A stretch of DNA of 64,000 nt from an uncultured Actinomycetota bacterium (GTDB lineage Bacteria > Actinomycetota > Actinomycetes > Streptosporangiales > Streptosporangiaceae): the NCBI GenBank assembly GCA_963809195.1, contig CAWEIQ010000007.1, positions 19,209 through 83,208 of the forward strand, read 5' to 3'. Position 1 is the stretch's first letter. Each line of letters begins with the position of its first letter. The notes under the pieces are model-generated. The model ran no database searches and was not told where the DNA came from. It saw only the letters and a program-made list of their open reading frames with translations. The position numbers and the translations under genes were made by a program. Shown here piece by piece: positions 1-64,000 of this stretch.

Positions 1-615
1 TGCACTGGCAATGTGCTGCTGGCAGCATGGCGGATGCGGTGGCGCCGATCGCATTCGCAATCAAGGGCGGGCCGCACGCGAGGCTGCTGTGGCAGTACAA
101 GTCGACTCGGCCTGCAGTCGCGGATGCCGGGCATGCGATGACGATCCGCGCCATGCTCCTGGTCTTCCTGCGCGATCACGGTCGTTGCCTGTGGCGCGCC
201 GCCGGCTCGGCCCGCCCGACGCACGTCGCCGTCGTCCCGACAGCCAGGGGGCGGCCAGGCACGCATCCGCTGCGCTCGCTGGTGCAGGGCTACCTGACGA
301 TCCCGTGGGCCGATCTGGTAGCAAGGCCGGGCGGAGAACAGGTGAGGGATCTGGACCCTGAGCGATTCAGAGCCAGGGCCGCTGCCAGGAGCTCATGTGT
401 TGCTGATCGATGACACCTGGACGACAGGGTCGAGCGCCCAGTCGGCTGCCATCGCGCTGCGCGCGGCCGGAGCCACCTCGGTCGTCACGGTTGTGATCGG
501 CCGGCACGTCGGCCGGCCCGCAGCGGAGCAGGCCGGTCTCGGACCGGCTGCCATGCCGTTCCGCATGGACAGCTGTGCGGTTCATCAGGACCATGCGGTC
601 GGCTCGCAACCATAG
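1..615 (+). pseudogene. Phosphoribosyltransferase (ComF-like) family protein; 5' end outside the window, one frameshift
   Basis: The frame of ORF 27..413 stays open to the window edge. The PRTase signature VLLIDDTWTTGSSA lies in ORF 397..615, one frame over. The junction near 370-400 reads ...FRA/GPLPGAHVLLIDD after a +1 shift. Confidence 0.6.
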
Positions 616-628
616 GCTTGACCCTGTG

Positions 629-1388
629 ATGACCGCCCCGCCAGCCACGCAGAAGCCCGCGCCACAGGTCCGCCGCAAGGCGGCCAAGGGGGAGCCGTCC
701 AGGACCGCGTTGGTCCGCCGGGCCCGGCGTATCAACAAGGAGCTCGCCGAGCTGTATCCGGACGCGCACACCGAGCTGGACTTCACCACTCCGCTCGAGC
801 TGCTGGTCGCGACGATCCTGTCGGCACAGACAACAGACAAGCGGCGTCAATTTGGTCACGCCGGTCCTCTTCGCCAGGTACCGGACCGCCGCCGACCTGG
901 CTGGGGCGGACCGCGACGAGGTCGAGAAGATCATCGTGACGACCGGCTTCTTCCGTGCCAAGACCACCAGCATCATCGGTCTCGGGCAGGCGCTGTGCGA
1001 GCGGTTCGGCGGCGAGGTGCCGCGCAAGCTCAAGGACCTGGTCACCCTGCCTGGTGTGGGCAGGAAGACGGCCAACGTGGTGCTCGGCAACGCGTTCGGG
1101 ATTCCCGGCATCACCGTCGATACGCACTTCGGGCGGCTCGCCAGGAGGTTCGGCTGGACCACGTCTGACGACCCCGTCAAGGTCGAGCAGGAGGTCGGGG
1201 CGCTGTTCCCGAAGTCGGAGTGGACGATGCTCTCCCACCGGCTGATCTGGCACGGCCGCCGGGTCTGTCACGCGCGCCGGCCGGCCTGCGGAGCGTGCGG
1301 TATCGCGGCGCTCTGCCCGTCCTACGGCGAGGGCCCGACCGACCCGGCCGTGGCGGCCAAGCTGGTCAAGCCAGGGCCATTCTCGTGA
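629..1388 (+). pseudogene. nth: Endonuclease III (Nth), one frameshift
   Basis: The N-terminal part ([17 protein letters not shown]) is in the frame of ORF 575..1168. The rest (VTPVLF..., [12 protein letters not shown] helix-hairpin-helix, Fe-S cluster [17 protein letters not shown]) is in ORF 852..1388. One extra base sits near 846-850. Confidence 0.8.
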
Positions 1389-2095
1389 CGGCCGCCGGAT
1401 ACGACCGCGAGCCAGAACCCGCCCCTGCCGAACGCGGCCAGGTGCCAGTCTGGCTGCGTGACCTGGCCAGGTCGGCTGCGGCGATGACCGTGCCGCCCGG
1501 GTTGCGCCCGCCCGCCAACGGCGGCCGGCACTCGGCGATCCTGATCCTCTTCGGTGACGGCCAGGCCGGTCCTGACGTCCTGCTCGTGCAGCGCAGCCAG
1601 TCGCTCCGACGGCACGCAGGCCAGCCCGCGTTCCCAGGCGGCGTGATCGACGCCGGTGACGACGGGCCGGTCGGAGCGGCCTTGCGCGAGGCGGCCGAGG
1701 AGGCCGGGGTCGACCCGGCCGGCGTGGACGTCGTCGGCGTGCTGCCCGACCTGTACATCTCGCGCACCGGCTACCGCGTGTCCCCGGTGCTCGCCTGGTG
1801 GCGCAAGCCGGTGCCCGTGGCCCCCGGCGACCCGGCGGAGGTCACCGCCGTCGCACGCGTCCCGGTTGCCGACCTCGCCGATCCTCGCCGACGGCTCATG
1901 ATCAGGTATCCGGGCGGTCATGCGGGACCCGCGTTCCGCGCCGGCGAGATGCTTGTCTGGGGGTTCACCGCGTTCGTCGTCGACCGATTGCTGGCGATGG
2001 GGGGCTGGGAGCGACCGTGGGACGGCGACACCGTTGCCGACCTGCCGCCGGGCATGCGGCTGACGGGAATCGAGAACCCGGGCCCGGTTAATTGA
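1385..2095 (+). CDS. NUDIX hydrolase (CoA-pyrophosphatase-like)
   Basis: Nudix box [25 protein letters not shown] in ORF 1220..2095. The likely GTG start at 1385 overlaps the nth stop (GTGA). Its position after nth matches mycobacterial synteny. Confidence 0.8.
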
Positions 2096-2205
2096 GCGGA
2101 GTGAGCGATTGAGCGGAGAATTGAGCGGCCGGACCTGGCGAGACGCGAGCCGGGGATCAGCGTCTGTCGTTCCATCCTGCCCGGATCAAAAGATAGCGTT
2201 AAGCC

Positions 2206-61467: not shown

Positions 61468-62150
61468 CCCGGGTGCTCGTTGTCGAAGATGAGGAGTCCT
61501 TCAGCGACGCGCTGTCGTACATGCTCCGCAAGGAGGGATTCGAGGTCGCGGTGTGCCCGACCGGGCCGGCCGCGCTCGATACCTTCGACCGGACAGGTGC
61601 GGATCTGGTGCTGCTCGACCTGATGCTGCCCGGGCTTCCGGGCAGCGAGGTCTGCCGCGCGCTGCGCGAGCGGTCGAACGTTCCGGTGATCATGCTGACC
61701 GCCAAGGACAGCGAGATCGACAAGGTCGTCGGGCTCGAGCTCGGCGCCGATGACTACGTGACCAAGCCGTTCTCGTCGCGCGAGCTGGTCGCCAGAATGC
61801 GGGCCGTCTTGCGTCGCCGCGGCGACGGCGAGGAGGCCGCCACCTCGGTGATGGAATCCGGTCCGGTTCGCATGGACGTGGAGCGGCACATCGTGATGGT
61901 GCGCAATTCCTCTGTGCAGCTTCCGCTGAAGGAATTCGAGCTGCTTGAGGTGCTGCTCAGGAACTCGGGCCGGGTGCTCACGAGAATGCAGCTGATCGAC
62001 CGGGTCTGGGGCGCCGACTACGTCGGCGACACCAAGACGCTCGATGTGCACATTAAGCGGCTGCGTGCCAAGGTCGAGCAGGATCCGGCGCGGCCGATGC
62101 ACATCATCACGGTGCGCGGCCTCGGCTACAAGTTCGAGCCCGGGAGCTAG
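61464..62150 (+). CDS. regX3: RegX3-type OmpR-family response regulator
   Basis: REC domain (VLVVEDEES, LVLLDLMLPGLPG, TAKDSE, YVTKPF) plus winged helix (LPLKEFELLEVLLRNSGRVLTRMQLIDRVWG...ITVRGLGYKF). Intact. Confidence 0.85.
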   Translation: MTRVLVVEDEESFSDALSYMLRKEGFEVAVCPTGPAALDTFDRTGADLVLLDLMLPGLPGSEVCRALRERSNVPVIMLTAKDSEIDKVVGLELGADDYVTKPFSSRELVARMRAVLRRRGDGEEAATSVMESGPVRMDVERHIVMVRNSSVQLPLKEFELLEVLLRNSGRVLTRMQLIDRVWGADYVGDTKTLDVHIKRLRAKVEQDPARPMHIITVRGLGYKFEPGS

Positions 62151-62781
62151 GTTGGCCCTGCCGGTTTCGTCAGGGCGAACCGGACGGTGACGGTGACGGC
62201 GTGAGCGATCCGTGGCTTGCCCGTCGCCGACGGGCTGGGGCTTGGCGAGATCGTCGGCGGCGGCGAGAAGGTCGCGTAGTTCGAGACCATCGGCATCACC
62301 GGCACAGACAGCCCGATCGTCCCGGCTCTGGCGAAGACCAGGTACAGCTTGACCACCGAGCCGCCGGCGAAGCGGCCTGAGCAGATGCTGGAGCACGATC
62401 GTCGGAGCCGGGCCGGTCAGCAGGACCCTGGACTGGTAGCGCAGCGGGATTCCGCGACCGGGCAGCACGCACCTTTTGCGCGATGCCGGGCGCCTTGACC
62501 GCGAGTAGCCGGTCCGGGGTGCCGATGTTCACCAGGCCGAGGAAGAACCCTGCGCTCTGGCCCCGCCTGAGCACGTGGCCGATCGGCGGGCCGAGCACGA
62601 ACGCGTTGCTGATCGTGAGGTTCTTGCCGACCAGCTGGTGGGTCCCGTCGGTGGGCTGATGCCACTGCAGGACGGGCGCGTTGGTACCGGCCTCACAGCC
62701 GGCGATGATCGGGCCCAGCGCGACCGCGGCCACGATCAGAATGCTGCGCGGCACGATCCCGCGGCGGCTGCTGCGGATCAC
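62147..62781 (-). pseudogene. Putative secreted lipoprotein, 2 frameshifts
   Basis: Signal/lipobox ILIVAAVALGPIIAGCEAG is in ORF 62296..62781. The protein continues in the frames of ORF 61269..62468 and ORF 62147..62356. I do not recognise the family with confidence. Confidence 0.5.
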
Positions 62782-63045
62782 CGAGCCTCCTCGTCAACTC
62801 CCCGGTGCGCGCTGGCTGGCAGGCGGGCATGCCGGTTAGTCGTGTCTACGAAATGGCTGGCGGCTACGCCAGACCTCGCACAGCGTAACGGCGCGGACCC
62901 AGCGGGCCGCAGCCGGCCCGCGGAAATCGGGCACGCGCGATCTGATGCCGAGAAGGTCAGTGAGCTTGGCTGCAGCGCCTTCAGGGTCCCCGCGAGATGG
63001 AAGTCGGGGGCTAGCGCGCGGGCGGGCCTGACGTTGCGCTGCCAG

Positions 63046-63740
63046 TCAACGAGGACGACGGTCAGGTGCCTTGGAAGCGTAGGCGCTGAGCACGTTGTCC
63101 GCGTCGATCGCGACGTGGGCTTTCTGAGCGCCAGCGGCGAGCCGCTTGAGCTCGTTCTTGCTGCCGCGCTCGCCGACCAGGTAGACGGTGACGCCGGCGG
63201 CCGCGGCCTGAGTGACCAGCCGTCGGATCGTGCGCGCGCAGCCGCAGTTGGCCGGGATGATCGCCAGCGCCGCGGTGGTGACTTTGCTCAGGTCGAAGCC
63301 CTTGCCAGTCGACGTTGATCGTGGCCTCCTGGCAGGTGCGCGGCGCCGTGGCGCTTGGACCGCCCGAGGAGTTCCTGCTGGCCGACGGAGCGGCCGGCGA
63401 AGCGCTCGCGCTGTTGCCTCCGGCCTGGCCGGTGTTCGGCACTCGTGGTCCATCTTGCTTGATCGGAAAGTCCGGAGAAGTGCGGGTTCGCGCTGAACAT
63501 GGTCAGCACCATCCCGGCGACCATGGCGAGCACGAGGCACCCCGCGATCAGCGGCACGATCATGCCGCTGCGGCGCAGTGGTGCGCGCCACCGAAGGCTG
63601 CGCTCGTGGCGACGCAGGGCGCGCAGCTCGCGATGATAGGCCTGGACGTCGCGGTCTAGCTCGCGAGCGTCATCGGGGATCTGGATGTCAACTCGTGGCA
63701 GGCCGTAATCGTCGTGTGCCGGTTCACCGCCTTGGTTCAC
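63046..63740 (-). pseudogene. Hypothetical single-pass membrane protein with an extracytoplasmic Cys-containing domain, 2 frameshifts
   Basis: The N-terminus and TM (MIVPLIAGCLVLAMVAGMVL) are in ORF 63288..63740, a low-complexity linker in ORF 63062..63442, and the C-terminal domain (AIIPANCGCARTIRRL...VTVYLVGERG) in ORF 63046..63591. Confidence 0.45.
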
Positions 63741-64000
63741 GCGTCGCTCCGGGAATCGCTCACAGGCTTCTTCCTTCAGTATGAGCCTGGCGACCGGCCG
63801 GCGTAACCACGGACCGGCAGTTGCTTCTCAGCTCGATCGGGTGGAGGCGATATGCAGGGGCTGCGGGGCGAGGCCTGGTCGCTTATGGCGGTCAGAGTGT
63901 GGCTAGGCGGTAAACTGGGTGCTACCCGCGAGGCGGCATTCATGGCGCTTGAGCGCGCGCAGACGTGGCCCGAGATTCCCGGTTAGCCGGGCCGAGGGTC

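Follow-up and report, generated by a model that had tools for sequence, protein, structure and literature searches.

The frame breaks that interrupt about half of the genes in the 64,000-nt window analysed here, the whole stretch (positions 1-64000) taken from contig CAWEIQ010000007.1 of an uncultured soil actinobacterium and showing a G+C content of 70% along its length, are very likely absent from the DNA of the organism and represent an artefact of noisy-long-read metagenome assembly, with more than one strain collapsed into a single consensus. About 29 of about 52 genes were found to be frame-broken when the codon model was combined with alignment to comparators (genes being counted from the gene tables of the comparators), which agrees with the sequence-only reading, an earlier inspection of the letters of this stretch that had put the number at 28 or more. 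Its statement that the shifts are overwhelmingly in the +1 direction also holds, as the isolated net events relative to short-read contigs, scored over 40.5 kb, comprise 57 net +1 and 11 net -1 changes (binomial P = 1e-8). The density of spurious one-base insertions is about 1.2-1.4 per kb of window.

In regard to the comparators, they were reached through metagenome contigs in ENA whose proteins are identical or nearly identical to those of the window. Twelve short-read contigs with SPAdes-style names ('NODE_..._cov_...'), coming from different ENA samples, were used (L081, L082, L087, L088, L090 and L092-L098), together with one long-read contig, the 138-kb 'contig_35810', which is the source of L086 and L089. 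They show 94-99% nucleotide identity to the window and cover about 47 kb of its 64 kb in all, 40.5 kb being covered by short-read contigs alone. Frames were called with a plot of G+C at third codon positions (GC3) and a codon-usage Viterbi caller with 7 states, for which the window itself was the training set, and both revealed numerous changes of frame from one segment to the next along the same strand. The H+/Na+-pyrophosphatase gene hppA has relatives at 92-95% protein identity, named by their source as 'Streptosporangiaceae bacterium' metagenome-assembled genomes (MAGs) from soil. Scanning a one-genome-per-species collection with hppA revealed no species-level relative, and the best matches there (76-82% protein identity) were dropped as comparators, being unusable for base-level comparison and only patchily syntenic. 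A plasmid collection gave distant matches only, exact-protein look-ups with hppA, gpmA, the AurF-like protein and Nramp-2 returned no record, and the search for AurF-like homologues found nothing above 95% identity, so that no comparator was gained from it.

In base-level alignments to the close relatives, almost every frame switch called by the Viterbi model has a length difference of one base no more than about 10 nt away. Where short-read contigs cover the genes broken in the window, all of these genes are intact in those contigs, including the helicase (in six contigs from different samples), the HisKA_3, MtrB-like and SenX3-like kinases and nth, as well as the ABC ATPases, the HD hydrolase, the regulators, and the CDF, APC, MgtE_N and YbjN genes (Table 1). 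None of the one-base insertions of the window occurs in any of the 12 short-read contigs or in contig_35810. Comparison with a close relative, which the sequence-only reading had proposed as a check, returned intact frames in the short-read contigs and insertions that are missing from independent assemblies. Intergenic DNA is affected too, at 5561, 5580, 5804, 59065, 59944, 60040 and 62840. The uniform direction of the shifts could bring to mind programmed +1 ribosomal frameshifting or transcriptional slippage that restores the proteins; however, the sites have no slippery motif in common and no slippery or stimulatory element at a position kept in homologues, and they are absent from homologues and not conserved in relatives at 97-99% identity, while 4-6 events would be needed in several genes and insertions occur between genes as well, so that such recoding has practically no chance of being the explanation.

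The sequence context of the insertions points to their origin. Among 53 base-resolved insertions, only 9 extend a homopolymer (17%, against 50% expected if they were random), while 39 add a base complementary to one of its neighbours (null 0.30). Two strain clades are represented among the comparators at 31 insertion sites; at 27 of these informative sites the comparators differ from each other exactly at the insertion (null 0.33, P = 7e-10), and at such single-nucleotide polymorphisms (SNPs) the window holds both alleles side by side. In a stricter test, restricted to sites with at least two comparators, two distinct comparator strings were each equal to the window minus one base at 18 of 38 sites. 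For example, at position 56878 one strain reads CACGCAGG, the other CACGGAGG, and the window CACGGCAGG; at 8479, CCTGAGC is found in seven contigs and CCTCAGC in L095, with CCTGCAGC in the window; and at 39934 the variants GCGAGCA and GCGTGCA correspond to GCGTAGCA in the window. Both helicase insertions, at 8479 and 9020, coincide with strain SNPs and retain the two alleles. The SNP underlying the simple cases is C/G in 12 instances and A/T, C/T and A/G in one each, whereas C/G and A/T together make up only about 31% of the SNPs between these strains (excess at insertions, P = 1e-5). The -1 event at 39483, in the gene listed earlier as 'kinase 4' and already noticed there as being of the deletion type, also falls on a C/G SNP, but neither allele is kept, which makes it the mirror case. 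Two insertions described in the sequence-only reading proved real at slightly different positions: the G added to ggc near 13808 is at 13802 (gtc[G]ggc), and the non-homopolymer insertion placed in the helicase near 8460 is at 8479, where the added base is C rather than 'a' (cctg[C]agc).

Such a context is hardly what ordinary random long-read errors at low coverage would leave, that is, homopolymer or methylation-motif errors unrelated to strain polymorphism, and we consider this source unlikely. Long-read assemblies are known to retain frameshift-causing indels, chiefly below about 40x coverage (PMC9262707), and the other long-read contigs of the lineage are fragmented too. Likewise, the events of the window resemble Nanopore/PacBio indel errors as revealed by the IDEEL test (PMC9262707) in that single-base indels split open reading frames (ORFs) and are missing in short-read data; metagenome contigs of moderate coverage often contain errors of this kind. 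Classical long-read errors, however, concern homopolymer length and are mostly deletions, while in the window 83% of the insertions lie away from homopolymers, the ratio of insertions to deletions is 5:1, and 27 of 31 insertions fall on real SNPs seen in independent short-read assemblies. Furthermore, no recurring motif was found around the insertion sites, whose contexts are diverse, and errors at methylation motifs were set aside on this ground.

The mechanism that we propose instead starts from a consensus merging reads of more than one strain. At single-base strain differences, mostly C/G transversions, the consensus or polishing step would pick no allele and write both, producing a +1 shift, and less often it would write neither, producing a -1 shift. 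Such a mechanism would explain why the shifts are almost all +1, why homopolymers are avoided, why the inserted base is usually the complement of its neighbour, and why breaks are more numerous in intergenic DNA and in polymorphic genes, such as those of sensor kinases and lipoproteins, than in highly conserved genes such as hppA. Flye is reported to merge strains at 98.65% identity into a single sequence (PMC8302730), and a large soil Nanopore MAG catalogue, in which microdiversity and low coverage are discussed, was built with Flye and one Medaka round, with no short-read polishing (PMC12313526). The window is comparable to Flye-type strain-collapsed ('strain-oblivious') contigs (PMC8302730) in the co-occurrence of strains of about 96-99% identity in this lineage and in its own position near the star centre; unlike the collapsed contigs in the literature consulted here, described as having mosaic consensus and lower identity, it shows a tandem C/G both-allele outcome that is not described there. 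The alternation of window alleles between two comparators was first read as evidence of a mosaic consensus, and this argument was rejected because three sequences in a star phylogeny yield the same alternation.

The defect is also present in other long-read contigs. L084 and L085, long 'contig_N' records from a related species, contain split Nramp, MatE, CoA-transferase, gpmA and cysS genes, while L083 is intact; three-way alignment assigned 33 private one-base insertions to L084, 14 to L085 and 4 to L083, those of L084 and L085 lying mainly outside homopolymers and frequently turning G into GC. In contig_35810 (L089), 8 private one-base insertions were found, and the MtrB-like kinase of this contig is a truncated version of 348 aa. 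The cysteinyl-tRNA synthetase gene is split in L084 (17611-18403) and gpmA in L085 (7916-8564), both being unbroken in the L083 gene table. These splits show that the assembly defect also strikes essential genes. What a collapse of strains should leave behind was found on three counts: events on sites polymorphic among co-occurring strains (27/31), consensus sequence with material of both alleles (18 strict cases), and the same defect at other sites in similarly made assemblies (L084, L085, L089).

Host-restricted actinobacteria of the Mycobacterium leprae type show massive pseudogenisation, and the window is like them in having about half of the genes interrupted in a high-GC actinobacterial segment. 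Genuine reductive evolution of this type would mean about 60 real one-base insertions and about half of the genes being young pseudogenes; the breaks do spare genes expected to be important (hppA, mshA, gpmA, regX3), they are over-dispersed among genes, and some larger lesions are present. The branch leading to the window nevertheless speaks strongly against it. In a four-way alignment of 56.5-64 kb (7.4 kb), this branch has 22 substitutions, 17 one-base insertions and no deletions, a ratio and direction foreign to bacterial indels with their deletion bias, while private indels of both short-read contigs in the same alignment number 0. Likewise, in 37.7-47.8 kb (10 kb), the window has 24 substitutions and 13 insertions, and L090 has no private one-base insertion. 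The window lies near the centre of the star-like relationship of the comparators and has acquired hardly any substitutions of its own. With the indels taken out and the genes read in the frames of the comparators, no nonsense codon is present in 40 genes, and substitutions in the 'broken' genes stay third-position-biased, the same as in intact genes. Counts for codon positions 1/2/3 are 11/7/43 in the HisKA_3 kinase with six insertions, 7/4/42 in APC and 1/4/25 in MatE; the power of this comparison is limited by the shortness of the window's own branch, yet the kinase pattern makes six real frameshifts in that gene not credible. Added to this, no one-base insertion of the window recurs in independent assemblies of the lineage at 95-99% identity, 27 of 31 insertions add the second allele of a natural SNP, and the unbroken fraction of genes is close to the chance expectation. 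Unlike Mycobacterium leprae, the window thus lacks nonsense mutations, deletion bias and a relaxed substitution pattern, its lesions are not common to near-identical strains, and its lineage is a common free-living soil one. Real decay, one of the two alternatives considered in the sequence-only reading, is accordingly very improbable. The technical artefact, the other alternative, is supported, although the deletion bias of bacterial mutation that had been invoked for it is not what decides; the decision comes from the absence of the insertions from 12 short-read contigs, their position on strain SNPs with both alleles, and the 17:0:22 counts of insertions, deletions and substitutions on the branch.

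It can also be imagined that the tandem both-allele insertions are real DNA, left by inter-strain recombination in which C.C and G.G heteroduplex mismatches, without MutS/MutL, keep both bases. This would require about 60 events on a branch of about 0.3% substitution together with the tolerance of about 29 broken genes, and we hold it to be more improbable still than decay; if true, a new mutational process would be causing frameshifts in genes where recombination tracts lie.

A strain-collapsed consensus also has to account for the genes that are hit and those that are spared. When 48 clean events were distributed over 41 genes in proportion to length, 14.7 genes (11.3 kb) were expected to be unbroken, whereas 20 of the 41 genes (17.9 kb) were found so (P = 0.013 for genes, 0.001 for kb); with weighting by mismatches to the comparator, the probability for unbroken genes was 0.09. 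The 22 kb of unbroken genes listed earlier as evidence of decay are thus only mildly above chance. Among the spared genes are those with the least polymorphism, hppA with 11 mismatches to L081 in 2331 nt, STAS with 2 and TauE with 5; the unbroken hppA thus offers the artefact few polymorphic sites. SNP density, measured against these comparators, explains the spared genes only in part and was rejected as a full account. Protein-guided frameshift correction keeping conserved genes intact was also rejected, as the well-conserved ABC ATPases are still broken. For the insertions flanking gpmA, higher intergenic polymorphism fits equally well as selection. The proposed concentration of breaks in sensor and transport genes stands, as a mild enrichment, for the kinases, where the three that could be compared hold 12 events against 5.6 expected (P = 0.012), and fails for the transporters, with 7 events against 12.4 expected and no enrichment. 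The claim that permeases carry five or more breaks each was not borne out among the comparable ones: APC and CDF have 1 each, MatE and MgtE_N 2 each, which is the maximum.

The larger lesions that had been offered as further evidence of decay find other explanations. L090 likewise has no intact MFS gene, so the MFS loss is shared between strains and is probably real. The FtsX/MacB_PCD permease segment is a difference in gene content between strains, since the FtsX gene is present in L089 and the segment is missing in L081. Such gene-content differences separate strains of 96-98% identity; the two sensor kinases of 33.1-37.7 kb, found in the window only, are absent from contig_35810 (L089). The reported '14-bp duplication' is present, and it is a 14-nt copy within a 15-nt in-frame tandem repeat, that is, a difference in repeat number that is one base short. 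A further difference in content was observed at 29721-29724, the junction at which the window has no counterpart of a GH1 glycosidase gene carried by contig_35810 (L089 15622-16964), where this gene is itself split in two.

Several points weigh against a strain-collapsed consensus or limit the area to which it applies. At 4 of the 31 informative insertions (9117, 38149, 41417, 63458), no alternative allele was seen among the comparators. The events are mildly over-dispersed, and 26375-33147 has no one-base insertion inside genes and a single intergenic one (31263), despite many differences from L089 (112 mismatches in the DAO gene); this empty block of 26.4-33.1 kb may reflect the places at which the co-assembled strains differ. 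About 17 kb have no comparator or a long-read one only (21.4-25.6, 33.1-37.7, 49.1-51.5 and parts of 47.8-56.5 kb), and events there come from the codon model. Pfam searches with ORF fragments from 21.4-24.3 kb and from the two kinases of 33-37.7 kb matched FtsX/MacB_PCD only, so that both regions depend on codon usage; the frame switch at about 35267 probably marks the border of the two kinase genes. The sequencing platform of the window and its Flye/Medaka-like pipeline are ones that we infer, and its close database relatives in ENA include Flye-style 'contig_N' beside SPAdes 'NODE_' records. Finally, the cause of the C/G preference is hypothetical: a likelihood-based polisher may treat deletions as frequent and C<->G miscalls as very unlikely, in which case 'GC' would outscore 'G' or 'C', each read needing only a deletion, while at transitions one allele could win because substitutions in half of the reads would cost little.

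Table 1. Genes and intergenic regions of the window with their frame events (positions in nt of the window; +1, one base inserted; -1, one base missing; aa, amino acids)
Feature	Coordinates	Strand	Events	Comparator and remarks
Gene read earlier as comF-like, 3' part of a 280-aa gene	1..614	+	+1 at 371	vs L092; no Pfam match
nth, HhH-GPD	624..1388	+	+1 at 845 (cgg[C]gtc)	252 aa in L092
Intergenic, holin-like gene to HAD	5561..5839		+1 at 5561, 5580, 5804; 9-nt length difference 5822-5839	L081, L092, L093 agree
DEAD/MZB helicase	6750..9178	-	+1 at 8479, 9020; messy cluster 9117-9162, net +1	797 aa; intact in L081, L082, L092, L093, L096, L098
STAS gene	9258-9698			
hppA	10560..12890	+	unbroken	
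ABC ATPase 1	13559..14394	+	+1 at 13802, 13842	277 aa in L081
HD_3 phosphohydrolase	15208..15821	-	+1 at 15392, 15653	203 aa
GerE-type response regulator	16381..17059	+	+1 at 16825	225 aa
HisKA_3 sensor kinase	17052..19208	-	+1 at 17061, 17191, 17271, 17379, 18132, 18878	716 aa in L081
ABC ATPase 2	19205..19938	-	+1 at 19259, 19835	243 aa
Response-regulator/guanylate cyclase	19935..21331	-	-1 at 20000 near 3' end; rest intact	465 aa in L081
FtsX/MacB_PCD permease segment, 4.9 kb	21408..26324			absent from L081; FtsX gene in L089 (contig_35810); no comparator for 21408-25618
FHA-PrsW protein	29723..31218	-	14-nt extra unit 30911-30925, net +2 shift	
Two large sensor kinases	33148..37674	+	+1, +1, +1, -1 (33.4-35.3 kb); -1 at ~37427	codon model
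Germane/Gmad2 protein	37681..38614	-	+1 at 38000, 38149, 38385	
MtrB-like kinase	38687..40144	-	+1 at 38754, 38970, 39787, 39934; -1 at 39483	484 aa in L090
OmpR-type regulator and MarR	40149..41436	-	+1 at 40459 (OmpR-type); 40856, 41417 (MarR)	
MFS remnant region	41578..42358			L090 without intact MFS: 258-aa ORF, no Pfam match
CDF transporter	42345..43263	-	+1 at 42768	C/G SNP with both alleles
APC permease	43423..46120	-	+1 at 44924; length differences in 15-nt repeat 43950-44086	44924: C/G SNP with both alleles
MgtE_N/CBS protein	46291..47711	+	+1 at 46306, 46761	
DUF4126	51982..52612	-	+1 at 52365	long-read only
MatE	53231..54561	-	+1 at 53362, 53502	long-read only
CoA-transferase III	54702..55840	-	+1 at 54804, 54823, 55040, 55064; -1 at 54819, 55060	long-read only
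ApbE and YbjN	56147..57712	-	+1 at 56878 (ApbE), 57641 (YbjN)	both C/G SNPs with both alleles
Intergenic around intact gpmA (59140-59883)	59062..60040		+1 at 59065, 59944, 60040	
SenX3-like kinase	60135..61309	+	+1 at 60214, 60270	390 aa in L087
RegX3 gene	61464-62150			
Lipoprotein	within 62170..63740	-	+1 at 62216, 62368, 62469	
Membrane protein	within 62170..63740	-	+1 at 62965, 63073, 63308, 63321, 63458; -1 at 63342	

Apart from the one-base events, the window contains several tandem repeats. Those with units of 15-30 nt, in-frame or nearly so, are located at gene ends: at 47756-47991 (upstream of and in the N-terminal part of Nramp-1), 57071-57167 (ApbE/YbjN junction), 43924-44088 (C-terminal part of the APC permease) and 40839-40910 (MarR/regulator junction). 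Length differences between strains are greatest at these repeats, and alignments there are unreliable. An 8-9 nt repeat (TGAGCGGAG-like) at 2093-2145, in the NUDIX-marP intergenic region, makes the window 29 nt longer than L092. The spacer between the SenX3-like kinase and RegX3 genes (61306-61467) holds two copies of a 48-nt tandem repeat, 95% identical, inside a 53-codon ORF, the ATG of which overlaps the kinase stop (ATGA), while its TGA overlaps the GTG start of the regulator (GTGA). The encoded peptide contains the 16-aa repeat RERPRGGL[P/A]DARDLE[N/S], and this small ORF is also called in L087 and L088. The arrangement resembles the mycobacterial interspersed repetitive units (MIRU), first described in the senX3-regX3 spacer of Mycobacterium tuberculosis.

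In a broader context, half of the genes in a public long-read metagenome contig can look like 'pseudogenes' through strain microdiversity and not through homopolymers, and checks focused on homopolymers miss such errors. Both-allele errors mimic selective gene decay because conserved genes hold fewer polymorphic sites, and they inflate the counts of pseudogenes and fragmented proteins in genome and protein catalogues. They leave a signature that can be screened for without reads, namely non-homopolymer +1 events with an inserted base complementary to its neighbour, at a site of C/G SNP. The organism itself is very probably an ordinary free-living actinobacterium of soil whose genes are intact.

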